Assembly (NCBI GenBank): GCA_036384395.1
Contig: DASVMK010000098.1
Coordinates: 93 to 64,092, forward strand
Direction of reading: 5' to 3'
DNA from: Novosphingobium sp.
GTDB lineage: Bacteria; Pseudomonadota; Alphaproteobacteria; Sphingomonadales; Sphingomonadaceae
Length of the DNA: 64,000 bases
Part shown: positions 2,162 through 19,982 of the stretch, piece by piece
Position numbering within the stretch: the stretch's first letter is position 1
Layout of the letters: every line of letters begins with the position of its first letter
Notes under the pieces: model-generated
The model's database searches: none
What the model was told of the DNA's origin: nothing
The model's input: the letters and a program-made list of their open reading frames with translations, nothing else
Translations under genes and position numbers: made by a program

Positions 2162-4336
2162 ATGAGCGAGGGACGCGGCGAGGCCGTCATGCCGCAAGCG
2201 GAACTGGGCGGATCGCGGTATTTCAACCGGGAGCTGAGCTGGCTGGCGTTCAACCAGCGCGTCCTCGCCGAAGCCTCCAACCCCGACTATCCGCTGCTTG
2301 AGCGGCTGCGCTTCCTGTCGATCTCGGGCAGCAACCTCGACGAGTTCACGATGGTGCGCGTCGCCGGGCTGGCCGGGCAGGTGCGCCAGCAGGTCGAGGA
2401 GACCTCGATCGACGGCCTCACCCCGTCGCAGCAGCTTGCCGCGATCCGCGATGCGGTGACCGAGCTCGAGGCCGGGCAGCAGGAAAGCTGGCGCGTGCTG
2501 CGCGGCCAATTGGCCGAACAGGGCATCGCGTTGGCCGGCGACGTGCGGCTGGATGCCGATCAGCGCGCCTGGCTCAAGGACTATTTCCTCGAGCACATCG
2601 TCCCGATCATCACCCCGCAGGCGATCGATCCGGCGCATCCGTTCCCGTTCGTCGCCAACCAGGGCATGGGCATCCTGTTCTCGCTGATCCGCACCGCCGA
2701 CGGATCGCCGGTGATGGAGATGATCCTCATCCCCTCGGCGCTGCCGCGCTTCATCCGCATGCCCGGCGGCAAAGAGAGTCAGAGCGCGAGCGGTCAGGCG
2801 CTCTACATCGCCATCGAGGACTTGCTGTGCCGTCACGCCGGGCTGATGTTCCCCGGCTTCAAGGTCCAGGGCCACGGCGTGTTCCGCGTGCTGCGCGACA
2901 GCGACCTAGAGGTCGAGGAGGACGCCGAGGACCTCGTCCGCTATTTCCGCACCGCGATCCAGCGCCGCCGCCGGGGCCGGGTGATCTCGCTGCAACTGCA
3001 GGGCGATTTCGATCCGGCGGCCGAGAAGCTGCTACGCGACCAGCTGCGCCTCGACAACGCGATGGTGCTCAAGACCGACGGCCTGATCGGCATCAGCGGC
3101 CTCGCCGGCATCGTCGAGGAGGACCGCCCCGACCTCAAGTTCGAGCCCTATAGCCCGCGCTATCCCGAACGCATCATGGAACACGACGGCGATTGCTTCG
3201 CCGCGATCCGCGAGAAGGACATCGTCATCCACCACCCCTACGAGAGCTTCGAGGTGGTGATCGACTTCCTGCGCCAGGCGGCCGAGGATCCCGACGTCGT
3301 CGCGATCAAGCAGACGCTCTACCGCGCCGGCAAGCAATCGGGCATCATCAACGCGCTGATCGCGGCGGCCGAGAACGGCAAGTCGGTGACCGCGGTGGTC
3401 GAGCTCAAGGCGCGCTTCGACGAGGAGCAGAACCTCCACTGGGCCAGCCAGCTCGAACGCGCGGGCGTGCAGGTGATCTACGGCTTCGTCGATTGGAAGA
3501 CCCACGCCAAGGTCTCGATGGTGGTGCGGCGCGAGGGCGAGGGCTATCGCACCTATTGCCACTTCGGCACCGGCAACTACCACCCGGTGACCGCGCGCAT
3601 CTACACCGACCTCAGCTTCTTCACCGCCGATCCCAAGGCCGGGCGCGACGCGGGCATGCTGTTCAACTTCATCACCGGCTATGTCGAGCCCGACAAGACC
3701 GAGCTCCTGTCGCTCTCGCCGCTGGGCCTGCGCCGCAAGCTCTACGAATGCATCGACGGCGAGATCGCCAACGCCACGGCGGGCAAGCCGGCGGTGATCT
3801 GGGCCAAGCTCAACGCGCTGACCGATCCCGAGCTGATCGACCGGCTCTATGCCGCGAGCGCGGCCGGGGTGGAGATCCTGCTGGTGGTGCGCGGCATCTG
3901 CTGCCTGCGGCCGGGCGTGCCGGGGCTGTCCGACAACATCGTCGTCAAGTCGATCATCGGCCGCTTCCTCGAGCACAGCCGCATCTGGGCCTTCGCCAAC
4001 GGCGCGCCGCTGCCCAACGCCAAGGCGCTGCTGTTCATCTCCTCGGCCGACGGCATGAGCCGCAACCTCGACCGCCGGGTGGAGCTGCTGGTGCCGATCC
4101 GCAACCGCACGGTTCACGACCAGGTGCTCGATCAGGTAATGCTGGCGAATCTGCTCGATACCGAGCAGAGCTGGCTGATCGGCCCGGACGGTAGCCATGC
4201 CCGGATGGACAAGGGTGAGAAGCCATTCAATCTGCATCTCTACTTCATGACCAATCCCTCGCTGTCTGGCCGCGGCGCGGCGCTGACCAGCGGCCGCAAG
4301 GTGCCCAAGCTCGCGCTGCGTCGCGGCGCTGGTTGA
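2162..4336 (+). CDS. ppk: Polyphosphate kinase 1
   Basis: YFNRELSWLAFNQRVL, HHPYESF, IKQTLYR, ELKARFDEEQN, KTHAK, GRFLEHSRI, SADGMSRNLDRRVE. Confidence 0.97.
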   Translation: MSEGRGEAVMPQAELGGSRYFNRELSWLAFNQRVLAEASNPDYPLLERLRFLSISGSNLDEFTMVRVAGLAGQVRQQVEETSIDGLTPSQQLAAIRDAVTELEAGQQESWRVLRGQLAEQGIALAGDVRLDADQRAWLKDYFLEHIVPIITPQAIDPAHPFPFVANQGMGILFSLIRTADGSPVMEMILIPSALPRFIRMPGGKESQSASGQALYIAIEDLLCRHAGLMFPGFKVQGHGVFRVLRDSDLEVEEDAEDLVRYFRTAIQRRRRGRVISLQLQGDFDPAAEKLLRDQLRLDNAMVLKTDGLIGISGLAGIVEEDRPDLKFEPYSPRYPERIMEHDGDCFAAIREKDIVIHHPYESFEVVIDFLRQAAEDPDVVAIKQTLYRAGKQSGIINALIAAAENGKSVTAVVELKARFDEEQNLHWASQLERAGVQVIYGFVDWKTHAKVSMVVRREGEGYRTYCHFGTGNYHPVTARIYTDLSFFTADPKAGRDAGMLFNFITGYVEPDKTELLSLSPLGLRRKLYECIDGEIANATAGKPAVIWAKLNALTDPELIDRLYAASAAGVEILLVVRGICCLRPGVPGLSDNIVVKSIIGRFLEHSRIWAFANGAPLPNAKALLFISSADGMSRNLDRRVELLVPIRNRTVHDQVLDQVMLANLLDTEQSWLIGPDGSHARMDKGEKPFNLHLYFMTNPSLSGRGAALTSGRKVPKLALRRGAG

Positions 4337-4358
4337 GGGTACGCGCGGGGCGGCGCGC

Positions 4359-5792
4359 ATGACCGCCGAGCGCGCGATCATCGACATCGGTTCGAACACC
4401 GTGCGCCTGGTGGTGTACGGCGGGCCGGCGCGCGCGCCGACGGTGCTGCTGAACGAGAAGGTCACCGCCAAGCTCGGCAAGGGCCTCGCCGAGAACGGCC
4501 GGCTGTCGGACAAGGCGATGAAAGTCGCGCTGGCCGCGCTCGGGCGCTATGCCCTGCTGCTGCGACTGCGCGGGGTGGAGAGGGTCGAGACCGTCGCCAC
4601 CGCCGCCGCGCGCGATGCGACCAATGGCGAGGATTTCCTGGCGCGCGTCCGCGCGCTGGGGCTGGCGCCGCGGCTGCTGTCGGGCGAGCAGGAGGCGGTC
4701 ACCAGCGCGATGGGCGTGATCGGCGCGCTGCCGGGCGCCAAGGGCGTCGTTGCCGATCTCGGCGGCGGCAGCCTGGAGCTGATCCATGTCGAGGGCGGGC
4801 GAAGCTGGCACGGCGCCAGCCTGCCGTTCGGCACGCTGCGCCTGCCGGGCTTGCGCGCGCAAGGGCCTGTCCGTTTCTCGCGCGGCATCGTCAAGGCGCT
4901 CGACGCGGCCGAATGGCACTGCGCGCCGGGCGAGGCGTTGTACCTCGTCGGCGGCTCGCACCGCGCGCTGGCGCGGGTGGCGATGCACGCGGCGGGCTGG
5001 CCGATCGACGATCCGCATGCCTTCGAACTGTCGCCGCAGGCGGCGCTCAAGACCTGCCGGCTGGTGCTGGCGGACGCGCTGCCGCCGGCGATTCCCGGCC
5101 TCTCGGCCTCACGCCGGGCGAGCCTGCCCGCCGCCGCCGCGCTGCTGGCGGTCCTGGTGCGCGAGCTCAAGCCGGCGCGGCTGGTGTTCTCCGCTTGGGG
5201 TCTGCGCGAGGGGCTGATGTACGCGGCGCTGCCGGCGGCGGAGCAGGCGCTCGATCCGCTGCTGGCGGGCGCCTTCGCCTTCGGCCAGGCGCTCGGCTGC
5301 GCGCCCGCCGACGCCGCGGCGATCGCCGGCTGGACCGCGCCGGTGGCGGCCGGGGACGAAACCTTGCGCCTCGCCGCGACGCTGCTGGCGCTGGTCTCGC
5401 AGCGGATCGAGCCCAACTTGCGCGCCGGGCACATCATGGACGGGGCGCTGCGCAAGCGCTGGATCGGCATCGACGCCCCCGGCCGCGCGCAGATTGCCGC
5501 CTGCGCGCTCGCCAACGCCGGGCGCGCGGCGCCGGCCGAGGCGCTGGGGCGCCTTGCCCCGGCCGACCGGTTGCGCGAGGCGGCCGGATGGGGCCTCGCC
5601 ATGCGCCTGTGCCGGCGCTTCAGCGGCCTTTCCGCCAAGGTGCTGGCGGGAAGCGCGCTGAGCGTGGAGGACGGCGCGCTCACGCTGACGATGCAGGAGG
5701 CCTACGCGCCGCTTTACACCGAGATGGTCGAGAAGGACCTCAAGGCGCTGGCCGAGCACCTGGGCCTGCGCGCGGCGGTGCGGAAGGCGTAG
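4359..5792 (+). CDS. ppx: Ppx/GppA family exopolyphosphatase
   Basis: IIDIGSNTVRL, SGEQEA, DLGGGSLEL, SAWGLREG; directly downstream of ppk. Confidence 0.92.
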   Translation: MTAERAIIDIGSNTVRLVVYGGPARAPTVLLNEKVTAKLGKGLAENGRLSDKAMKVALAALGRYALLLRLRGVERVETVATAAARDATNGEDFLARVRALGLAPRLLSGEQEAVTSAMGVIGALPGAKGVVADLGGGSLELIHVEGGRSWHGASLPFGTLRLPGLRAQGPVRFSRGIVKALDAAEWHCAPGEALYLVGGSHRALARVAMHAAGWPIDDPHAFELSPQAALKTCRLVLADALPPAIPGLSASRRASLPAAAALLAVLVRELKPARLVFSAWGLREGLMYAALPAAEQALDPLLAGAFAFGQALGCAPADAAAIAGWTAPVAAGDETLRLAATLLALVSQRIEPNLRAGHIMDGALRKRWIGIDAPGRAQIAACALANAGRAAPAEALGRLAPADRLREAAGWGLAMRLCRRFSGLSAKVLAGSALSVEDGALTLTMQEAYAPLYTEMVEKDLKALAEHLGLRAAVRKA

Positions 5793-5800
5793 AGAAGGGG

Positions 5801-5928
5801 TGTTCGCGCAAAGGCGCGAAGGTGTAGCGCCCGCGGCGAAGCCGCGCTTACGATCCGGAAAGAGCTATAGGCCTTCGGCCGGGCGCGACCTCTTTGCGCC
5901 TTTGCGCCTTTGCGCCTTTGCGCGAACA
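5801..5928. repeat. REP-like palindromic intergenic element with 22-bp terminal inverted repeats, two internal hairpins and a 4x CTTTGCGC octamer
   Basis: 5801-5822 TGTTCGCGCAAAGGCGCGAAGG matches the reverse complement of 5907-5928 at 21/22; internal CGCGGC-GAA-GCCGCG and GGCC-TTC-GGCC; tandem octamer 5892-5923; lies between convergent ppx and virB11. Confidence 0.8.
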
Positions 5929-5938
5929 AAACTCTTGT

Positions 5939-6934
5939 TCAGCCCACCAGCTCCCGCGCCACGGCGATCTCGGCGATGGTCCGCTGGCCCTCGTGGCGCT
6001 TGAGCTGCACGATCACGTCGATCAGCGAGGCGGCGTAGTCGATCGTTTCGTGGCGGGTGAGGCCGATCTGCGCCTGCATCGCCATCAGGCCGATCTGCTC
6101 CAATGCGCCGCGCGGGGAATTGGCGTGGACGGTGGAGAACGAGCCGGGATGGCCGGTGTTGATCGCGCGCAGGAACGAGACCGTCTCGCGTCCGCGCAAT
6201 TCGCCCAGCACGATGCGGTCGGGGCGCAGGCGCAGCGCCGCCTGGACGAGATCGTCGGGCGTCACTCGCGCTTCGCCGAGCTCCCCCTTGACCGCGACGA
6301 GGCCCAGCGCATTCGCCGTCGGCAGCTTGAGCTCGGGCGTGTCCTCGACCAGGATCACGCGCTCGCCGGGCGGAATCGCGCCGAGCATGGCGTTGAGGAA
6401 CGTGGTCTTGCCGGTCGAGGTGCCGCCGGCCACCAGGATCGTCTTCCGCCGCGCGATCGCCGCGCGCAAGTAGTCGAGCGGGCGGGCCAGCGGATCGGGC
6501 ATCGCCGCTTCGGCCTGGGGCCGGATCGGGCCGTTGTTCCAGGCATCGAGCGGCAGGTCGATCAGGCGGTGGCGGCGGATCGCCAGCGCCCAGTTGCGCC
6601 GCGTCGCCGGCGGGCCGACGAGCTGGATGCGCGCGCCGTCAGGTAGTGTCGCGGCCAGCAGCGGATGCTCGCGGTTGATGCCCTGGTGGCTCTGGCGCGC
6701 GACTTGCTCGGCCAGTCGTTGCAGCAGGGTATCGTCGATCTCGGGCAGCGCGACGCGCTGCATGGCGGGCGTGCCGGCCTCCTCGATCCACAGCTCGCCG
6801 GGGCGGTTGACGAGGATCTCGGTGACGCTTTCGCGCGCCAGGAACGGGCGGAACGGCGCCAGGTAGGCGTCGAGATAGACGCTGCGCGGCGCGGTGTCCG
6901 CCGCCGCCGGGAGCGCGCGCAGCTCGGCGCTCAC
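5939..6934 (-). CDS. virB11: P-type T4SS ATPase VirB11
   Basis: EILVNRPGE, Walker A GGTSTGKTT, VEDTPEL, LRLRPDRIVLGELRG, NTGHPGSFSTVHANS; GTG start overlaps the virB10 stop (GTGA). The longer tracked ORF is an upstream extension. Confidence 0.95.
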   Translation of the reverse strand: MSAELRALPAAADTAPRSVYLDAYLAPFRPFLARESVTEILVNRPGELWIEEAGTPAMQRVALPEIDDTLLQRLAEQVARQSHQGINREHPLLAATLPDGARIQLVGPPATRRNWALAIRRHRLIDLPLDAWNNGPIRPQAEAAMPDPLARPLDYLRAAIARRKTILVAGGTSTGKTTFLNAMLGAIPPGERVILVEDTPELKLPTANALGLVAVKGELGEARVTPDDLVQAALRLRPDRIVLGELRGRETVSFLRAINTGHPGSFSTVHANSPRGALEQIGLMAMQAQIGLTRHETIDYAASLIDVIVQLKRHEGQRTIAEIAVARELVG

Positions 6935-8034
6935 TCGCGTTCGACCTTCGAGAAGTCGAGATCGCGCGCGGTGAAGACGCGGATCGGCTCGCCCTGGCGG
7001 ACGCGGATCGTCGGGCCGATCTGTCCGCCCTGGCCGACCGCCGCCGCGGCCGCCGACTGGCCGCCGCCGCCGACGATCACATTGGCGCCGTTGCCGATCA
7101 GCGAGGGGATGCCGCCGATCACCGAGAGCAGCATCGACGAGCCGAAGCGCTCGAAGAAATGGCTGTCGACCTTGCCGGCGAGGCCGGTCTCGCCGGAGAA
7201 GGCGACGGCGGGGGAGGCGATGGCGACCGAGACGCCGTCGGGGCGGATCAGCCGCGTCCAGATCACGTAGGCGCGCTTCTGGCCCGAGGTCATGCCGCTC
7301 TTGTACTGGCCGATGAGCCGCGACGAGCGGGGGACGAGCACGCGGGTGCCGTCGAACGAGCGCACGTCGGCCGAGACGATGGCGCGGACGTAGCCGGGCA
7401 CGTCGGTGTCGATCGCGGTTTCCAGCACCGCCGGGATCAGCGTGCCCTGCGTCACCGTGGTGCGCGGATCGATCGCGCTGGCCGCACTGGCCGCGCCGCC
7501 GCCCACCCCGCCGAGCCGCGCGGCGAAATCGTCGTTGCCGTTGCCGGAGCCGCCCGGTGCCGCCGCCGGTCCGCCCAGCGCGATGGCGGGGGCGGACGCG
7601 GGAAGCGCGCTGGCGTCGAACACGATGGTCGGGCTGCTGTGTGGGTTGGCCCGCACGCCTGGCGCCATTTGCGGCGGCGCGGCGAGGACCGCCTGCTGTT
7701 GCGGCGCTGCGGGCGCGGTTCCGGGCGCGGGGGTGATCGCCTGTGGCGGCACCGCGGGCGGCAGCGCGACGGGCGGGGCGCCCACTTGCGTCGGCAAGGG
7801 CCCGCGCTTCTGCACGGTGCGGGCGTTGTCCATGCTCCACAGCGTCACCGCGCCGAGCAGGCCGACCACCGCGACCCCGGCGGCCAGGCCGAAGGCGTCG
7901 GAGCGCGGCTTGCGCGCCGCGACTTGCGGCAGGACGTTGCGCGTGGCGAGATCGATGATCTCCGCGCCTTGCGCATCGCGCGGATCGGCGTCGTTGGCGG
8001 CGAAGCGTTCGGACAGCTTGGTCGTGGGGCGCAT
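6931..8034 (-). CDS. virB10: TrbI/VirB10 T4SS core-complex protein
   Basis: N-terminal TM helix, Pro/Ala linker, QGTLIPAVLETAIDTDVPG, VPRSSRLIGQY, G..G.VDSHFFERFG, PTIRVRQGEPIRVFTARDLDF. Confidence 0.95.
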   Translation of the reverse strand: MRPTTKLSERFAANDADPRDAQGAEIIDLATRNVLPQVAARKPRSDAFGLAAGVAVVGLLGAVTLWSMDNARTVQKRGPLPTQVGAPPVALPPAVPPQAITPAPGTAPAAPQQQAVLAAPPQMAPGVRANPHSSPTIVFDASALPASAPAIALGGPAAAPGGSGNGNDDFAARLGGVGGGAASAASAIDPRTTVTQGTLIPAVLETAIDTDVPGYVRAIVSADVRSFDGTRVLVPRSSRLIGQYKSGMTSGQKRAYVIWTRLIRPDGVSVAIASPAVAFSGETGLAGKVDSHFFERFGSSMLLSVIGGIPSLIGNGANVIVGGGGQSAAAAAVGQGGQIGPTIRVRQGEPIRVFTARDLDFSKVERE

Positions 8035-8038
8035 GGGA

Positions 8039-8842
8039 TCAGTGGCCTTGGGCGGGGAGGATGAGCGGCGGGGCGGCGGTGTCGGTGGCGGCGGCCAGGC
8101 CCGGCGAAGCGGCCGGCGCGACCGGTTTGGGCGCCGCGCCGCGGTTCTCCAGCATGGCCATCGCCTTGCCCAGCCGCAGCACGATCAGCGCGGGCACGCC
8201 GTCCACCACGATCACGTCGTCGCGCACCGCGTAGTTCACCGGGCCTTCGACGCCCGCTTCGTTCTGCACCAGGATCGCCGGTACCGGCTGGCCGGCGGGC
8301 CACGACAGGAAGGTGGATTCGCCGTCGTCATAGACGCGCTGCGGCAGCAGCGTCGGCTTGCCCTTGGGGGCCCAGGCGAAGTTGAGCTGCGCGGGATCGA
8401 CCGGCGGCTTGGCCAGCGCCTGCGCCTCGGCGCTGCTCAACGTGGGCTGCGGGGCCGGCTTGGGCTCGGCCGGATAGGTGAAGCGCAGCACGTAGATCGG
8501 CCGCGCGGCGGGCGAGGCGGCGAGGTCGAACACATAGCTGCGCTTGTCGGTCACCACCGTCATGTTGGTGCGCGCGCTGGCGGTGAGCGGTTTCACGAAC
8601 AGCATGTTGGCGCGCTTGTTGGGCGTCACCTGCCACAAGTTCGAATCGCCGATGGCGACGTTCTCGATGTGCTCCTCGTCGGCGAAGGCGATCGCCGCCT
8701 GGACGCCGGTGCGCCCTTCGAGGCGGACGACCTGGTTGGGGTCGTAGTGCCGGGTGGCGAGGCGCGGGTCGGCGGTCTGGGCATGCGCCGGCACCGCGAT
8801 CGTGACGAGGGGGGCTAGCGCGAGAAGCAGCGGGCGGATCAT
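8039..8842 (-). CDS. virB9: TrbG/VirB9 T4SS outer-membrane core protein
   Basis: Signal peptide, DPRL..Y.P.QV, NMLFVKP, TNMTVVTDKRSYVFDL, VYDDGESTF; ATG overlaps the virB6 stop. Confidence 0.93.
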   Translation of the reverse strand: MIRPLLLALAPLVTIAVPAHAQTADPRLATRHYDPNQVVRLEGRTGVQAAIAFADEEHIENVAIGDSNLWQVTPNKRANMLFVKPLTASARTNMTVVTDKRSYVFDLAASPAARPIYVLRFTYPAEPKPAPQPTLSSAEAQALAKPPVDPAQLNFAWAPKGKPTLLPQRVYDDGESTFLSWPAGQPVPAILVQNEAGVEGPVNYAVRDDVIVVDGVPALIVLRLGKAMAMLENRGAAPKPVAPAASPGLAAATDTAAPPLILPAQGH

Positions 8843-10038
8843 CGGGACATCTCTTTCAGCGAAGCGGGCGCGCGCGCGGCGAAGCGGCTGCCGATCCCGC
8901 GCGCGCGGGCGCGGGGCAGCGGCGGCAGGCCGGGCTGCGGCGCGAGCGCGGCGGCCTGGGTAACGGTGGTGCGGATCGTGCTGGTCTGCGCCGAGCCGCC
9001 GGTGGGGGCCTGCGCCTCGGCGGCGGCGGCGATCACCGGCGCCAGCGCCGCGCCGCGCGCCAGCATCGGCGTCGGCTGCGCGGCCAGCGGCGCGAGGACC
9101 GGGATGGCGGCGGCACCGTTCGCCGACGAACCGCCCCTGCCGCTCTCGGAGGGCGCGGCGAGGCCGAACACCGTCCAGGCCGACACCATCGTGCCCGCGA
9201 CCTTCATCACCATGCTCATCAGCGCCGCGTGGACCGCCGCGATCACGAACAGCGCCATCGCCGCGCGCGGGTCGATCCCCTCGGTGCCGCGCAAGTCGGC
9301 GATCACCGGCACCGCGAGCTCGAGCGTCAGCGAACCGCCGGCGACGACGAACAGCGGCGCGATCGCGGTCATGACGAGGCCGCGCAGCCAGCCCGCCGCC
9401 AGCCCGCGCGTGCCCGAGAACAGCGCCAGCACGACGAAGACCGGCCCCAGCGCGAGCAGCACGGCCAGTGCGATCCGCGCGGTCACCAGCACGCCGACGG
9501 TGCCGAGCAGCAGCAGCAGCGCGCCGAGCCACATCAGCCCGGTGGGCGAGAACGCGCCTCCGGCTTGAGCGGCATTGGCGGCCTGCGCCGCGCCCGCCGC
9601 CGGAGCGGCGCCGTTGCTGGCGGTCTGGGCGATCGCCGCGAAGATCATGTCGAGCCGGCCGGCGAAGATCTGCGTCGCCGAGCCCTTGATGCCGGTGAGG
9701 ATCCCGGCGAGCTGGTCGGGCGCGCCGATGGCGAGGTTCCAGACCACGCCCTGCCAGGCGACCCAGCTCGTCGCGAAGGTCAGCACGAGGCCGAGCGTCA
9801 GCGCGCGCGGGGTCAGCGCCGCCACGCCGAGCCGGCTGCGCCCGGTGAGCAGCGCCAGCGCGAAGACCGCGATGTAGAGCGTCAGCAGGATCGTCAGCGC
9901 CGGCAGGAGCGCGCCTTGCGCGCCGAACAGCCGGCCGAACGCCGCGCCCGCCAGCTCGTTCGACAGGCAATCGACCGCGCGCAGCGCCGGGGCGGCGCCC
10001 AGCGAGGCTTCGGCGGTGAGCTGGGTGCAGGCGGCCAT
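8839..10038 (-). CDS. virB6: TrbL/VirB6 polytopic inner-membrane T4SS protein
   Basis: Several TM segments, RIALAVLLALGPVFVVLALFSGTRGLAAGWL signature, Ala/Pro-rich C-tail; sits between virB4 and virB9. Confidence 0.88.
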   Translation of the reverse strand: MAACTQLTAEASLGAAPALRAVDCLSNELAGAAFGRLFGAQGALLPALTILLTLYIAVFALALLTGRSRLGVAALTPRALTLGLVLTFATSWVAWQGVVWNLAIGAPDQLAGILTGIKGSATQIFAGRLDMIFAAIAQTASNGAAPAAGAAQAANAAQAGGAFSPTGLMWLGALLLLLGTVGVLVTARIALAVLLALGPVFVVLALFSGTRGLAAGWLRGLVMTAIAPLFVVAGGSLTLELAVPVIADLRGTEGIDPRAAMALFVIAAVHAALMSMVMKVAGTMVSAWTVFGLAAPSESGRGGSSANGAAAIPVLAPLAAQPTPMLARGAALAPVIAAAAEAQAPTGGSAQTSTIRTTVTQAAALAPQPGLPPLPRARARGIGSRFAARAPASLKEMSR

Positions 10039-10039
10039 G

Positions 10040-12469
10040 CTACTCGGCCGCCTCGATCCACAGCGCGTCCTCGTCGTCCGCTTCGCCCGGCCAGGCCTCG
10101 CCGGTCAGCAGCGGATACCAGGCGGCGGGCCGGTCGCCGACCTGGGCGCGCAAGGCGTCGAGCCGGCGCACGGTGCTTTCGCGGCCCGAGAGCACGGTCA
10201 GCACCTCGGGCATGCCCGAGAGGTCGAGCCGCACGACGACCGAGGCGTCCGACTGGCGGACCAGGAAACAGCGGCTCTGCGCCGGCAGCGTGCGGATCAG
10301 GTCCAGCTCGTGGCTCGTCAGGCCGAAGCCCTCGCAATAGTCTTCGGGCCGGGCGCGGGCGTTGGGCATGAACACCATCGTCGCGGTCTGCTCGACCAGC
10401 GCCGCCGAAATCCGGCTTTCGAGCGCGTCGCGCGCCGACTGGGTGGCGAAACCGACCAGCGCGTTGCGCTTGCGCAGCGTCTTGAGCCAATCGCGGATGC
10501 GCGCGGCGAAGACCGGATCGTCGAGCGCCTTCCAGCCCTCGTCGATCAGGATCATCGCCGGCGTGCCGTCGAGCCGCTCGTCGATGCGGTGGAAAAGGTA
10601 CATCATCACCGGCGTGCGCAGCCGCGGGGTTTCGAGCAGCGCGGTCATGTCGAAGCCGATGACGCGGGCGGAGAGGTCGAGGCGATCCTCCGCGTTGTCG
10701 AACAGCCAGCCGTGCTCGCCCGCCCCGATCCAGGCGTCGAGCCGGGCGGCGAGGTCGCCGGGTTCGGGGCGGCGGCTGCCCGCCAGCAACTCGCGGAAAT
10801 GGGTGAGGCGGCGCAGCGCCGGATCGTTGGCGTAGGCGGCGTCGACCGCGCCCGCCAGTGTCGCGTGCTCCTCCGGCCCGTCGGCGGCGAGCAGCACCGC
10901 CAGCCAGTCGCGCAGGAAGGCGCGGTTGGCGGGGGTGTCGGGGAGCGCCAGCGGGTTGAAGCCGGTCGGATGCCCGGCGGCGATACGGCTGTAATCGCCG
11001 CCGATGCCGCGCACGAAGACCTCGGCACCGCGATCCTTGTCGAACAATACGGTGCGGGGGCCGAACTTCTGCGCCTGCGCCGCGAGGAAGTTCATCACCA
11101 CCGTCTTGCCCGAGCCGGAGGGGCCGATGACGGTGAAGTTGCCGAGGTCACCCTGATGGAAATTGAAGAAGAACGGCGTCGCGCTGGTGGTGGTCAGCAG
11201 CGTCGCCGCCTCGCCCCAGTGGTTGCCCTGGGCGCTGCCCATCGCGAAGCCGTGGAGGCTGGCGAAGCAGGCCATGTTGGCGCTGGAGACCAGCGCGCGG
11301 CGAACGACGAACGCCTCGTTGCCGGGGAACTGACCCCAGAAGCCGGGCTCGAGGTTGACGTCCTCGCGCACCGCGATCGCGCCCATGTCGGCGAGCGCGG
11401 CGGCGCAGGCGGCGGCGGTCTCGTCGAGCGCGGGCAGGCTGGGCGCGCGGACCAGGACGGAGAGGTGGTGATCGCCGAAAGCGGTGGCGCCGGTGCCGAG
11501 CGCGTCGCGCGCGGCGGTCATCTCGCGGCGTTCGGCCAGCGCCTCCTCGTCGGCGGATTTCAAACGGCGGATGGCGAGGTCGATGCGCTCGCGGGCGATC
11601 TGGCGGTCGGTCGGCGCGTAGCTGGCGGTCAGCACCAGCTCGCACGGCAGCCGCAGCAGCGCGTCGGCGAGGCCGGGCGCGGTGGTGTCGGGGTAGTCCT
11701 TGAGGCTGATCAGCGCGGCGAAATCGCTGCTCCCCGCCGCCACTCCTCCTGGGCCGCGCGCTTCCATCGCGTCGAGGCCGAACGACAGCCGCTTGTAGGG
11801 CAGCATGCGACCCACGTCGGTGCCTTCGGCCGGGCGGCGCACGGGGCGCATCTCGCCGTTGTAGAGCGCGCTGAGCAGTTCGAGCACTTCCGAGCAGGTG
11901 CCGCCCGCGCCCTCGTAGTCGCCCAGCATCCGCGCGCCATAGGCGCCGAGCGAGGCGGTGAGCGCGCCCGCCGCCGCCTTGAGCGCGCGCACGTCCGCGG
12001 GATCGGCTGCGATTGGCGCGGCGCCTTTGCGCTTCATCATCCGGCCGAGCCTGTCGGCCCAGCCGGCGCGGCCGCGCGCGGGGCGGCGCACCAGCGTGAC
12101 GAACTGGTCGTTGACGTAAAGCGCGCGGGTGGCGACCGCCGCCTTCCAGCGCGCGTCGATATGCGCGGCCAGCGGATCCTCGAACGTGCCGTCGAGCTCG
12201 ACATGGACGCGGCGGCGGATGACGTGGTGGTAGAGCACGAAACGGGCGTCGAGCGCGCTGCGCAGCAGCACCTCGCGCGTCGCGGCGTGGGCGTTGAGTT
12301 CGTCGGTGTCGGCGGTCTCGAACGAGAGGCCGGGCACCATCAGCGCGCACAGCACCGATCCGTCGCGCAGCAGCACGACGTTCTCGTCGACGAGCGCGCG
12401 GTAGGGCAGGCGGTCGCCGGCCGAGGCTTCCTTGTTCGCCCAAGCGGCCGCTCCGGATAACAGGCCCAT
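10040..12469 (-). CDS. virB4: VirB4 family T4SS ATPase
   Basis: Walker A GPSGSGKT, LFDKDRG, GFNPL, Walker B ILIDEGW, WLKTLRKRN, FATQS; start MGLLSGAAAW with AGGAG RBS. Confidence 0.96.
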   Translation of the reverse strand: MGLLSGAAAWANKEASAGDRLPYRALVDENVVLLRDGSVLCALMVPGLSFETADTDELNAHAATREVLLRSALDARFVLYHHVIRRRVHVELDGTFEDPLAAHIDARWKAAVATRALYVNDQFVTLVRRPARGRAGWADRLGRMMKRKGAAPIAADPADVRALKAAAGALTASLGAYGARMLGDYEGAGGTCSEVLELLSALYNGEMRPVRRPAEGTDVGRMLPYKRLSFGLDAMEARGPGGVAAGSSDFAALISLKDYPDTTAPGLADALLRLPCELVLTASYAPTDRQIARERIDLAIRRLKSADEEALAERREMTAARDALGTGATAFGDHHLSVLVRAPSLPALDETAAACAAALADMGAIAVREDVNLEPGFWGQFPGNEAFVVRRALVSSANMACFASLHGFAMGSAQGNHWGEAATLLTTTSATPFFFNFHQGDLGNFTVIGPSGSGKTVVMNFLAAQAQKFGPRTVLFDKDRGAEVFVRGIGGDYSRIAAGHPTGFNPLALPDTPANRAFLRDWLAVLLAADGPEEHATLAGAVDAAYANDPALRRLTHFRELLAGSRRPEPGDLAARLDAWIGAGEHGWLFDNAEDRLDLSARVIGFDMTALLETPRLRTPVMMYLFHRIDERLDGTPAMILIDEGWKALDDPVFAARIRDWLKTLRKRNALVGFATQSARDALESRISAALVEQTATMVFMPNARARPEDYCEGFGLTSHELDLIRTLPAQSRCFLVRQSDASVVVRLDLSGMPEVLTVLSGRESTVRRLDALRAQVGDRPAAWYPLLTGEAWPGEADDEDALWIEAAE

Positions 12470-12479
12470 CGTTCGCTCC

Positions 12480-12761
12480 TTACGGCGCATAGCTGTTGCA
12501 GCCCCAGCGCTGGAAGTTCCGCACGCGCGGACAGCGGGAGACTTTGGTGATCCACAAATCGAACACGCGCGGTTCACGCAGGCAGGCGAGATAGCCGATC
12601 GCGTGGATCAGCAGCGCCACCGGCAGCGCCAGGAAGCTCTTGGTGATGAGGAACGCCTCGGTGGTCACCGCCGCGTTGATCACGAAGAAGCTGTAGGTGA
12701 CGCCGGCGAACATCTGCGGCCGTGTCAGCGCCCGGTGCACCGGATAGCGCGTAAGCTCCAT
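12480..12761 (-). CDS. virB3: VirB3 T4SS protein
   Basis: 93 aa, ALTRPQMFAGV motif, two TM helices, directly upstream of virB4. Confidence 0.92.
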   Translation of the reverse strand: MELTRYPVHRALTRPQMFAGVTYSFFVINAAVTTEAFLITKSFLALPVALLIHAIGYLACLREPRVFDLWITKVSRCPRVRNFQRWGCNSYAP

Positions 12762-13078
12762 CAGCCGACCGCCGCGGCCGACTGGATGCCGGTGACGATC
12801 GCGCCCGCGCCGAACAGCACGAAGCAGCCGATGATCACCGTCGCGCCGAAGCGCCAGTTCATCCGCCCGGTCAGCATCATGAAGCCCACCGCGGCGACCG
12901 CCATCACCGCGACCGCGGTGGCGACGTTGCCGAGCAGCGTGCCCTGCAGCCAGCCGAGCGCGGCGACGATCGGGCCCGAGCCTTGCGGATCGGCGGCCGC
13001 GCCCGCGACTTGCGCGTAGGCCGCCTGCGGCGCTGCCAGCAACGTGGCGGGGAAAAACTTCTTGAGCATCGGGGTCAT
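12761..13078 (-). CDS. virB2: TrbC/VirB2 pilin
   Basis: Signal/leader followed by two hydrophobic helices (GNVATAVAVMAVAAVGFMMLTG; IIGCFVLFGA); stop overlaps the virB3 start. Confidence 0.9.
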   Translation of the reverse strand: MTPMLKKFFPATLLAAPQAAYAQVAGAAADPQGSGPIVAALGWLQGTLLGNVATAVAVMAVAAVGFMMLTGRMNWRFGATVIIGCFVLFGAGAIVTGIQSAAAVG

Positions 13079-13716
13079 CTCCGAACGGGTGCGGACAGGA
13101 TGGGTGCGGTCAGCCGCGCCATGATCGACGCGACGTAGTTCTGGGTTTCGCGGATGCGCGGGATGCCGCCCGCCGCCTGCACCCGGCCGGGGCCGGCGTT
13201 GTAGGCGGCCAGCGCCTTCTCGATGTCGCCGCCGAACGCATCGAGCTGGGCGCGCAAGTAGCGCGCGCCGCCTTCGAGGTTGGCGTGCGGATCGTCGGGG
13301 TTCACGCCCATCTGGCGGGCGGTGCCGGGCATCAGCTGGGCAAGCCCGCGCGCGCCCGCCGGCGAGACCGCGCCGCTGCGCCAGCGGCTCTCCTGCCAGA
13401 CGAGGGCTTCGATCAAGGCGGGCGACAAGTCATACTTGGCGGCGAGCTCGGCCACGCGCGCGCGGTAGGCGTCGGGGACGGCGGTGGGGGCGACGTCGGT
13501 AACCGGGGTGCCCTGGGGGACGGCCGCCAGGGGCGCGTCGAGGTCGAAGGTGGTCGCCTCGGTCGCGGCTGCCGGTCCGCCCGCGACCCATGCCGCACCG
13601 CGCGTGCCGATCTCGAGCACGTCGGCATGGGCAACGGTGGGGACGAGCGGCGACAGGGCCAACAAGGCCGCCGCGACGTCAGAAACCACCGAATCAACTG
13701 CCCACAACCGACTCAT
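13075..13716 (-). CDS. virB1: VirB1-like soluble lytic transglycosylase with signal peptide
   Basis: SLT motifs QESRW (catalytic Glu), SPAGARGLAQLMPGTA, ALAAYNAGPG, ETQNYV; AGGAGG RBS; first gene of the virB operon. Confidence 0.88.
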   Translation of the reverse strand: MSRLWAVDSVVSDVAAALLALSPLVPTVAHADVLEIGTRGAAWVAGGPAAATEATTFDLDAPLAAVPQGTPVTDVAPTAVPDAYRARVAELAAKYDLSPALIEALVWQESRWRSGAVSPAGARGLAQLMPGTARQMGVNPDDPHANLEGGARYLRAQLDAFGGDIEKALAAYNAGPGRVQAAGGIPRIRETQNYVASIMARLTAPILSAPVRR

Positions 13717-13750: not shown

Positions 13751-13768
13751 GTGACGGCTCTGTGACAG
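13751..13768 (-). promoter_or_regulatory. Pho box upstream of virB1: CTGTCAC-AGAG-CCGTCAC
   Basis: Reverse complement of GTGACGGCTCTGTGACAG; two near-consensus PhoB heptamers at 11-bp spacing ending 35 bp before the virB1 ATG. Confidence 0.8.
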
Positions 13769-13903: not shown

Positions 13904-14299
13904 TCATCGCGCGGCGAGCATCTGGCCCTGCGAGAGGCGGGACAGCGCGGAGCGGGCGGCCTGGCGCGAATCCATCCAACGGCCGTCGGCAAGTTCGAGC
14001 TCGTAGCGGCTGCGGCTCGCCATCGCAGCGCGGTAGTACCCTTCGGCCTTGGCCATGTCGCCCATGCGGGCGGAGGCGGTGCCGAGGTTGATAAGGGCGG
14101 CCGGATCGTCGATGTCGAGTGCGCGATTGGCGCGGATGCGATGAATCGCTGCCGCGTTGTGGCCGGCGCTGAGTTCGTCGTAGCCGACTTCGGCGTAGGC
14201 GATCTCGCTGCCCGTGCGTCCCTCGTACCCCGGGACGACGATCAGCGGCGCGGATTGAGCCAGCAGCGCGGCAACCAGCATAGTAGCGGACATCGGCAT
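13904..14299 (-). CDS. Small secreted tetratricopeptide-repeat protein
   Basis: AGGAG RBS, hydrophobic N-terminus, TPR-like segment PAALINLGTASARMGDMAKAEGYYRAAM. Confidence 0.75.
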   Translation of the reverse strand: MPMSATMLVAALLAQSAPLIVVPGYEGRTGSEIAYAEVGYDELSAGHNAAAIHRIRANRALDIDDPAALINLGTASARMGDMAKAEGYYRAAMASRSRYELELADGRWMDSRQAARSALSRLSQGQMLAAR

Positions 14300-14371
14300 C
14301 GTTCTCCTGAATTCTGTTCTGACCCGGTCAGGCTATGACTCGCCTCCTGTTCGCGCAATGAAACTGTAACA

Positions 14372-19183: not shown

Positions 19184-19858
19184 TCAAGGCTGGTCGAGCA
19201 CGTATCCCAGCGAACGCACCGTGCGCAGCGGATCGCCGGCGCCGGCGGTGCGCAGCGCGCGGCGCAGGCGGCCGATCCAGACATCGACCGTGCGTTCGTC
19301 GACCGGCGGGTCCTGCTTGCCGAGCGCGGCGATGAGCTGGCCGCGGGTGAACACCCGGCCGGGATGCTCGACCAGGTAGCGCAGCAGGCGGAACTCGTTG
19401 GGCATCAGCGGGATCGCCTTGCCGCGCCAGCGCGCCTGGAAGGCGGCGAGATCGATGCTGAGCTCGCCGAGCGCGAGGTTGCGCGCGGGCGCGCCGTCGT
19501 GGTCGTGCGGCCGGGCCGAGAGCACCCGGTCGAGCAGCGCGGTGCGGGTGGCGGGTCCGACCATGTAGTCGTCCGCCCCGGCGCGCAGCGCACGGCGGCG
19601 GGCGTCCTGGTCGTCCTCCTCCAGCATCATCGTGATGTGCGCCTGCGCGGTCAGCGGATCGCAGCGCAGCCGGCGGCAGATCTCGAGCCCTGAGATCTCG
19701 GGCAGCACCCAGTCGACGAAGGCCCAGAGCGTGCCTTCGAGCAGCGGCAGCTCGCTGGGCCGCGCCCAGCGATGGAACAGCACTTCGAGCTCGCCGTGGA
19801 CGAACGGCGCGGTTCCCCCCTCGAGCTCGCCGGTCAGCAGTATGTCGACGCGGTGCAT
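19184..19858 (-). CDS. PhoB-like OmpR-family regulator with atypical (pseudo-)receiver domain
   Basis: FVDWVLPEISGLEICRRLR and GADDY resemble PhoB; DNA-binding domain ERTVDVWIGRLRRAL...LRTVRSLGY; GGAG RBS before ATG 19858. Confidence 0.85.
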   Translation of the reverse strand: MHRVDILLTGELEGGTAPFVHGELEVLFHRWARPSELPLLEGTLWAFVDWVLPEISGLEICRRLRCDPLTAQAHITMMLEEDDQDARRRALRAGADDYMVGPATRTALLDRVLSARPHDHDGAPARNLALGELSIDLAAFQARWRGKAIPLMPNEFRLLRYLVEHPGRVFTRGQLIAALGKQDPPVDERTVDVWIGRLRRALRTAGAGDPLRTVRSLGYVLDQP

Positions 19859-19901
19859 GGAACTCCGGCCCTGTGTTGCGGAAGGACCCTGCCGCCGCCG
19901 T

Positions 19902-19941
19902 GTGACGCGCAAATGACGGTTCGGCGACAGTTCGGTGAAAT
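19902..19941 (-). promoter_or_regulatory. Four-unit Pho-box array upstream of the phoB-like gene
   Basis: Minus strand ATTTCAC-CGAA-CTGTCGC-CGAA-CCGTCAT-TTGC-GCGTCAC with exact 11-bp period. Confidence 0.8.
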
Positions 19942-19953
19942 CGCGGCGCTCGC

Positions 19954-19982
19954 CTGTCACCGAACTGACCCCGATCCGTCAC
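19954..19982 (+). promoter_or_regulatory. Three-unit Pho-box array upstream of plcP-agt
   Basis: CTGTCAC-CGAA-CTGACCC-CGAT-CCGTCAC with exact 11-bp period. Confidence 0.8.

Follow-up and report, generated by a model that had tools for sequence, protein, structure and literature searches.

A reduced type IV secretion system predicted from a conserved chromosomal virB operon of the Sphingomonadaceae

The 64,000-nucleotide stretch of Novosphingobium sp. DNA analysed here (assembly GCA_036384395.1, contig DASVMK010000098.1, positions 93 to 64,092; hereafter the window, whose numbering is used unless a contig or locus is named) contains an eight-gene operon at 5939–13716 on the minus strand, virB1-B2-B3-B4-B6-B9-B10-B11, that encodes parts of a VirB-type type IV secretion system (T4SS). 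Judged from sequence, the system is a real and largely undescribed reduced T4SS variant. The comparisons below indicate that purifying selection has maintained it throughout much of the Sphingomonadaceae, in most cases at a single chromosomal site next to ppk-ppx, and that VirB5, VirB8 and the VirD4 coupling protein were lost a single time in the lineage, with VirB7 not recognizable. It is very probable that the locus represents a conserved, selected, reduced T4SS variant. To the whole explanation, in which the operon would derive from a plasmid-type VirB system (mating-pair formation type T; MPF-T) that was reduced and became fixed in the chromosome, we assign a probability of about 0.65.

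In diderm T4SSs, VirB8 counts as a universal scaffold, and it makes up the arches of the R388 structure. VirB7 is likewise taken to be the lipoprotein present in every outer-membrane core, and VirB5 is credited with starting the growth of the pilus. Homologues of VirB8, a bitopic, NTF2-like protein, are reported to be recognizable in all diderm T4SS classes (Guglielmini et al.; PMC4027160). The only trace of the present system in the literature searched is a table footnote in a 2009 survey, which records for two Erythrobacter genomes, E. litoralis HTCC2594 and Erythrobacter sp. NAP1, a T4SS that 'lacks VirB8' (PMC2702493). No functional study of the Sphingomonadaceae system was found in that literature, and a 2025 review of unusual T4SSs makes no mention of a Sphingomonadaceae lineage (PMC12857230).

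Architecture of the operon and the components it lacks

The eight open reading frames (ORFs), each of them open throughout, were assigned with Pfam and NCBIfam. The lytic transglycosylase VirB1 (13075–13716; 213 residues) has a signal peptide and matches Pfam SLT (E = 1.9e-24). It is followed by the pilin VirB2 (12761–13078; 105 residues; TrbC/VirB2, E = 3.4e-16) and by VirB3 (12480–12761; 93 residues; Pfam VirB3, E = 1.3e-27), whose match to NCBIfam PRK13899 (E = 2.1e-19, 69.9 bits) falls under the model cut-off of 74 bits. The ATPase VirB4 (10040–12469; 809 residues; Pfam CagE_TrbE_VirB) starts at an ATG behind AAGGAG and scores 714.6 bits against TIGR00929, which has a cut-off of 643. The polytopic membrane protein VirB6 (8839–10038; 399 residues) matches TrbL over residues 52–276 (E = 3.5e-32), and the Pfam TrbC, VirB3 and TrbL matches of VirB2, VirB3 and VirB6 all exceed their cut-offs. 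VirB9 (8039–8842; 267 residues), with a signal peptide and no lipobox, matches CagX over its full length (E = 2.1e-50), and VirB10 (6931–8034; 367 residues) matches TrbI, also at full length (profile positions 1–188 of 188). The last gene encodes the ATPase VirB11 (5939–6934; 331 residues; Pfam T2SSE), which scores above the cut-off of TIGR02788 (296 bits) and whose GTG start overlaps the virB10 stop codon.

The genes are tightly packed in DNA of high guanine-plus-cytosine (GC) content (∼70% for the window). The B1/B2 and B6/B9 junctions are ATGA overlaps, B2/B3 is a TGATG overlap and B10/B11 a GTGA overlap; the remaining junctions are gaps of 10 nucleotides (nt) containing the AAGGAG sequence (B3/B4), 1 nt (B4/B6) and 4 nt (B9/B10). 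VirB4 contains GPSGSGKT and ILIDEGW and VirB11 GGTSTGKTT, and the SLT glutamate lies in VWQESRW. An initial annotation, made from the window sequence, had described this gene order with overlaps or gaps of 1–10 bp, together with intact Walker and SLT motifs and no frameshifts; the Pfam assignments and the reading of the junctions agree with it, and the motifs proved to be near-invariant in 23 loci.

The C-terminal tail of VirB6 (∼110 residues, about 290–399; window 8839–9170) is rich in alanine and proline, of low complexity and variable between loci. It keeps two short motifs in almost every locus, AAND at about its midpoint and SRARG(I/V)GSRFR close to its end, and these may be docking motifs. 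In Agrobacterium VirB6 the tail is cytoplasmic; if that topology holds here, the tail might, as a speculation, contact the ATPases. No protein of the operon is larger than its counterpart in the canonical outgroup, and thus none has obviously grown to take the place of VirB8.

The annotation had also held that the operon leaves no room for unannotated virB5, virB7 or virB8 genes, and the junctions concur. A scan of the cluster for small ORFs with a lipobox, aimed at a hidden VirB7, gave only VirB2-internal pieces and antisense artefacts, on which ground such an ORF within the cluster was rejected, and VirB9 is not a lipoprotein. A profile of 11 VirB8 proteins was compared by hhalign with the alignments of the eight orthologue sets and of two neighbouring genes, and the probability was ≤0.6% for each. 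A cryptic VirB8 in the VirB6 tail, in the N-terminus of VirB10 or VirB1 or in the neighbouring tetratricopeptide-repeat (TPR) protein was therefore rejected. No VirB5 was found within the cluster by Pfam or in the junctions; the VirB5 profile PF07996 does recognize the VirB5 of an outgroup locus (L037).

The search was widened to the assembly that contains the window (G000; 273 contigs, 2.85 Mb, 91.8% completeness) and to 25 complete or near-complete genomes that carry the cluster, with PF04335 for VirB8, PF02534 for the coupling protein and the MobA_MobL and Relaxase domains for relaxases of the MOBQ and MOBP families. The window's own genome has no PF04335 match with E < 0.5, and 16 of the 25 carriers have no match. 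In at least five of the nine carriers that do contain VirB8, the gene adjoins a second, distant VirB6 paralogue and thus belongs to a separate conjugative element. Both VirB8 and the PF02534 coupling protein are missing in 11 carriers, and VirB8, VirD4 and the MobA_MobL and Relaxase domains are all missing in eight. A rough scan of the genome for a small lipoprotein with a P[ILV]N motif found none.

The absences proposed by the initial annotation thus extend to the whole assembly for VirB8, and not for VirD4 and the relaxase: the one strong VirD4/TraG match lies on contig C262 and MobA_MobL relaxases are present on C262 and C18. C262 (12.9 kb, 65% GC) encodes a resolvase, ParA, TraG/VirD4, a TraD-like protein and a 1200-residue TraA relaxase; the GC content of the genome (68.2%) lies between that of C262 and that of the operon (72.7%). 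A 4.2-kb stretch of it (L002, 2725–6957) is 99.8% identical to a 21-kb plasmid of Brucella anthropi (NZ_CP088967) and 88–96% identical to small plasmids of Rhizobium, Roseomonas, Labrenzia, Rhizorhabdus and Sphingobium. C262 is thus a promiscuous mobilizable plasmid or a mis-binned contig, and its near-identity to such plasmids argues that it is not the missing half of the operon. The VirD4 and relaxase genes of the assembly were rejected as the missing parts on these grounds and because 11 of the 25 carriers have no VirD4. A second VirB set was likewise rejected, as none was found by tblastn and the two VirB11-like genes on C73 and C13 are ∼33% identical paralogues. The second MobA_MobL relaxase lies at C18:30274–30870, in an open frame of 742 residues.

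Conservation and phylogeny

A VirB6 orthologue (E below 1e-70, 44–62% identity) was found in ∼71 of 201 sampled genomes of the Sphingomonadaceae, including that of Sphingobium fluviale CHR27 (locus L003). At least 27 genera, each represented by two or three genomes, have it in all of them; presence is mixed in three or more genera, the window's own among them. Gene content was compared in 20 kb around each of 20 family loci and in locus L003 (21 loci), to which L036 (22 loci) and the window (23 loci) were added; the 22 related chromosomal loci are drawn from more than 20 genera. Each of the 21 family loci repeats the gene content and order of the operon, with nothing inserted; L036 does so too, save that virB1 is missing. 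The ORFs are intact and of near-constant length in 22 of the 23 loci (the exception being L036), and no frameshifts or stops occur in any of the 23.

The operon is under strong constraint. The VirB4 Walker A motif is invariant (23/23 loci) and the Walker B motif ILIDEGW is present in 22/23; the P-loop, Asp box and GHPGS of VirB11 are conserved across loci, and the catalytic VWQESRW of the SLT domain is kept in 21/22. Mean pairwise identities are 0.74 for VirB4, 0.72 for VirB11 and, across the 23 loci, 0.71 for VirB2; the adjacent housekeeping gene ppk has 0.72, so that VirB4 is no less conserved than ppk. Ratios of nonsynonymous to synonymous substitution rates (dN/dS) are 0.03–0.46 for all eight genes (Nei–Gojobori, six closest pairs; dS is near saturation), and pairwise distances correlate with those of ppk (r = 0.58 for VirB4 and r = 0.85 for VirB10). 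The view of the initial annotation that the system is not decayed is upheld by the intact ORFs, the invariant motifs and dN/dS values well below 1. Two apparent fusions were encountered. The VirB6 frame of L033 (9473–11377; G025) enters VirB9 without a stop and would encode a VirB6–VirB9 fusion of 632 residues, provided that VirB9 has no start of its own within the frame. That of VirB11 in L032 was rejected as an artefact of ORF extension, since a stop codon is present.

In a maximum-likelihood tree of VirB4, the 23 VirB8-less clusters form one clade (support 100/98). Within it, the 18 syntenic clusters, termed type A, form a subclade (support 100/100) and the five type-B clusters a basal grade at other chromosomal sites. 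A class-wide VirB4 search returned identities above 57% only from the Sphingomonadaceae and from one genome elsewhere: G427, a 6-Mb genome of another family, which carries L036 (67%, virB1 missing) and probably acquired the type-B form by horizontal transfer. A locus on the Sphingomonas aerolata plasmid NZ_CP098765 (L043; VirB4 53% identity), with an annotated VirB8/TrbF gene before VirB9, is sister to the clade with weak support (84/60). More distant is the chromosomal locus L037 (43% identity), with Pfam-confirmed VirB5, VirB6, VirB8 and VirD4, and at ∼40% identity there are loci with several tandem VirB6 paralogues, whose arrangement of VirB3, VirB4 and then several VirB6 genes resembles that of the Rickettsiales rvh system.

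The losses are common to the whole clade and are thus ancient. The structural simplification posited by the initial annotation is borne out, in that the nearest outside relatives keep VirB8 and most of the 25 carriers lack it. Its proposal of vertical inheritance is supported by concordance within genera, shared flanks and the single clade, but the different sites of the type-B clusters, L036 and the mixed status of the window's own genus indicate that descent has not been vertical throughout.

Predicted Pho control and flanking genes

Upstream of virB1, at 13751–13768 on the minus strand, is a predicted Pho box, CTGTCAC-agag-CCGTCAC, which takes the position of a −35 element; 34 nt separate its end from the ATG of virB1. 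In 15 of the 18 type-A loci the motif (TGTCAY-N5-TGTCAY, one mismatch allowed) recurs just before virB1, with strand and position unchanged, compared with a background of 0.016 per region. The 2.85-Mb assembly contains only 11 such sites. Five of the other ten (C192:27149, C192:25785, C39:11082, C79:1800 and C103:9663) precede pstS, an adjacent PhoR-like kinase gene, two OprO/P porin genes and a gene for a NUDIX-PhoU_div protein. Because the motif precedes pstS and the PhoR-like kinase and OprO/P genes, it is taken to be the Pho box of this organism, and these five sites together outline a compact predicted Pho regulon. With such a box before virB1, the operon is predicted to be activated by PhoB; the type-A operon is thus likely to be under Pho control and to be made when phosphate is scarce. 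A terminator-like hairpin (13844–13832) between the TPR gene and the virB promoter suggests that the virB operon is its own transcription unit.

The type-B loci lack a Pho box, and three of them stand beside regulatory genes, which suggests that a different signal controls the same machine. In L031, L032 and L036 the cluster adjoins an OmpR-type two-component system (response regulator and histidine kinase) and a lipoprotein with a twin-arginine translocation (Tat) signal, a Ser/Thr-rich linker and a Dioxygenase_C-like domain, a possible exported partner. These neighbours lie at 14338–16184 in L031, at 3972–5779 and 13510–15912 in L032 and at 11725–15106 in L036.

In the window, the downstream flank consists of ppk and ppx, the latter convergent with virB11, and the upstream flank encodes a small exported TPR protein, a 531-residue lipoprotein, a TonB-dependent receptor and an OmpR/PhoB-type regulator. 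The TonB-receptor/lipoprotein flank is common to 14 of the 18 type-A loci and the ppk-ppx flank to 10 of 18. No relaxase or VirD4 gene was found beside the operon; the flanks are ordinary chromosomal genes, as the initial annotation had stated in denying mobility genes beside the operon. The TPR protein (13904–14299, minus strand; 131 residues, weak TPR matches) adjoins virB1 in 13 of 18 type-A loci and is not present in L019, L021, L027 and L028; it is a frequent neighbour and was rejected as an obligate component of the system because several loci are without it. The OmpR/PhoB-family regulator (19184–19960, minus strand) has a receiver domain that matches only Pfam profile positions 47–110 of 111. 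It was rejected as an orthologue of the type-B-cluster regulator, with ∼33–44% identity limited to the C-terminal part that includes the DNA-binding domain. Between the convergent virB11 and ppx genes is a structured intergenic element (5801–5928) of four tandem CTTTGCGC copies within an imperfect inverted repeat (22–28 nt, 86–95% complementary), which is probably a terminator or an element like a repetitive extragenic palindrome (REP).

Mode of action and alternative explanations

The eight proteins have homologues in the same order in the minimized MPF-T systems R388 Trw, pKM101 Tra and Agrobacterium VirB/D4, and R388 supplies the closest solved structures, TrwK for VirB4 (E = 3e-130), TrwE for VirB10 (E = 2.9e-34) and TrwF for VirB9 (E = 5e-17). 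VirB10 aligns to TrwE over residues 79–364, with an antenna loop that is ∼9 residues shorter here, and VirB9 aligns to TrwF across both domains. In contrast to these systems, the present locus has no VirB5 (the stalk tip), VirB7 (the O-layer lipoprotein), VirB8 (the arches), VirD4 or relaxase, and it is chromosomal, family-wide and preceded by a Pho box. The Ptl system of Bordetella pertussis includes the VirB7 homologue PtlI and the VirB8 homologue PtlE, has no VirB1 and is encoded directly behind its cargo genes, whereas the present operon includes VirB1, has neither VirB7 nor VirB8 and is joined to no conserved cargo gene. Both systems are without a coupling protein, and the candidate exported neighbours found here (the TPR protein and the Tat lipoprotein) are conserved across only some loci. 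Ptl also has no VirB5 and keeps VirB11 (PMC12857230); it exports Sec-delivered periplasmic cargo in two steps (PMC12857230) and by analogy is a model for how a machine without a type IV coupling protein (T4CP) may operate.

Other systems share single traits. ComB of Helicobacter pylori likewise has no VirD4 or VirB5 and uses a two-step route between the outside and the periplasm (PMC12857230); it comprises VirB2–VirB4 and VirB6–VirB10 and therefore contains VirB7 and VirB8 and lacks VirB11 and VirB1, the reverse of the Sphingomonadaceae system on all four counts. The rvh system of the Rickettsiales is also a vertically inherited chromosomal T4SS without VirB5 (PMC2653234), but its components are duplicated and scattered in islets. 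The S. aerolata plasmid locus, the closest VirB4 outside the clade, shares the order B2-B3-B4 ... B9-B10-B11, and its plasmid is typed as non-mobilizable. It differs in its plasmid location (55% GC), in a VirB8/TrbF gene that follows the VirB6 region and precedes VirB9, and in another VirB2 gene placed behind VirB11.

In the mechanism that we propose, a PhoB-dependent promoter would drive the type-A operon under phosphate scarcity to produce the VirB1 transglycosylase, the VirB2 pilin, an inner-membrane platform of VirB3, VirB4 and VirB6, a VirB9/VirB10 core and the VirB11 ATPase. Since there is no coupling protein, and no relaxase, the canonical one-step route for cytoplasmic DNA or effectors would be closed. 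VirB4 and VirB11 would most likely power the building of a VirB2 pilus or pseudopilus that passes through the VirB9/VirB10 core and acts between periplasm and exterior. This filament might export Sec- or Tat-delivered cargo, as Ptl does, or capture material from outside, extracellular DNA for example, and draw it inward, as ComB does, for phosphorus scavenging. All described systems without VirD4 (Ptl, Brucella VirB, ComB and Trw) are two-step exporters, DNA importers or pilus-only systems (PMC12857230), and VirB2 is so strongly conserved that an adhesin with variable antigens, like Bartonella Trw, is disfavoured. By analogy with these systems, the two-step pseudopilus mechanism is put forward tentatively, with a little less than even confidence. 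The most far-reaching version, in which the eight proteins would suffice without VirB5, VirB7, VirB8 and T4CP and would form a PhoB-controlled phosphorus-scavenging T4SS, we regard as somewhat doubtful.

Several observations weigh against the explanation of the operon as a fixed, reduced chromosomal T4SS. Contrary to the initial annotation, its composition is not host-like: among the genome's 7.8-kb windows (mean 68.3% GC, standard deviation 2.2%) the operon, at 72.7% GC, ranks at the 99th percentile, and its tetranucleotide distance is at the 90th percentile. The Pho box is missing from three of 18 type-A loci and from four of four type-B loci, so that Pho control is not universal. About 60% of the family genomes are without the system, which is hence dispensable, and no cargo gene is conserved with the operon across loci. 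VirB7 and VirB5 are short and fast-evolving, so that the absence of VirB7 beyond the cluster is uncertain, and PF07996 matched no VirB5 in any genome, even in those with full conjugative systems, and so is uninformative beyond the cluster. Finally, VirB1, VirB2 and VirB7 of Rickettsia were first called absent and later located elsewhere in the genome (PMC2653234).

These last points bear on an alternative that we consider unlikely, in which the machine is not minimal and unlinked or non-homologous genes supply VirB7- and VirB8-like functions, and perhaps a tip protein. The scattered parts of Rickettsia set a precedent for it, VirB7 is tiny, the search for VirB5 with a hidden Markov model is insensitive, the VirB8 analogues of Gram-positive bacteria are recognizable by structure only (PMC4027160) and exported proteins adjoin the clusters of both types, the TPR protein in type A and the Tat lipoprotein in type B. 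Against such hidden parts stand the empty PF04335 searches in most carriers, the hhalign result and the rough genome scan; moreover, the TPR protein is missing from several loci and no extra gene accompanies the cluster in both types. It is quite improbable that the operon is a host-encoded mating-pair-formation module, retained because it moves mobilizable plasmids or islands that bring TraG and TraA in trans. C262 would suit such a helper, since it has TraG, TraD, TraA and ParA and no MPF genes, in an assembly without a second VirB set. Near-identical plasmids of 11–46 kb occur in Sphingobium and Rhizorhabdus, also in Brucella and Rhizobium, and one carrier (G057) has VirD4 and a relaxase and no VirB8. 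Yet the operon remains intact in the carriers without VirD4 and in the eight without the relaxase families tested, C262 is perhaps a promiscuous guest or a binning error, and Pho-box control at a fixed chromosomal site is unexpected for a conjugation helper. Decay is strongly disfavoured: supposedly essential parts are gone, many genomes have no cluster and L036 has also lost virB1, as might be expected of an inactive remnant of a conjugative element, but the loci from more than 20 genera are free of frameshifts and stops, with invariant catalytic motifs, dN/dS values well below 1 in every gene and a conserved promoter motif, and the losses, being clade-wide, are ancient.

Read as a conserved and reduced T4SS, the locus amounts to a natural deletion experiment in which VirB5, VirB7, VirB8 and the coupling protein have been dropped and eight genes remain under housekeeping-level constraint in dozens of genera. 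Nature has thus tested here how few parts can suffice for a T4SS and which contacts are dispensable, and the locus offers a smaller target for structural biologists. Were the eight-protein scavenging version true, a VirB2 pseudopilus would, for instance, import extracellular DNA or release periplasmic phosphoesterases; the system would then be a new structural subclass without arches, VirB5 stalk tip or lipoprotein ring, and would have a new physiological role for a T4SS. The predicted Pho box, for its part, would connect a T4SS of free-living environmental bacteria with phosphate starvation, a role that belongs neither to conjugation nor to interaction with a host.

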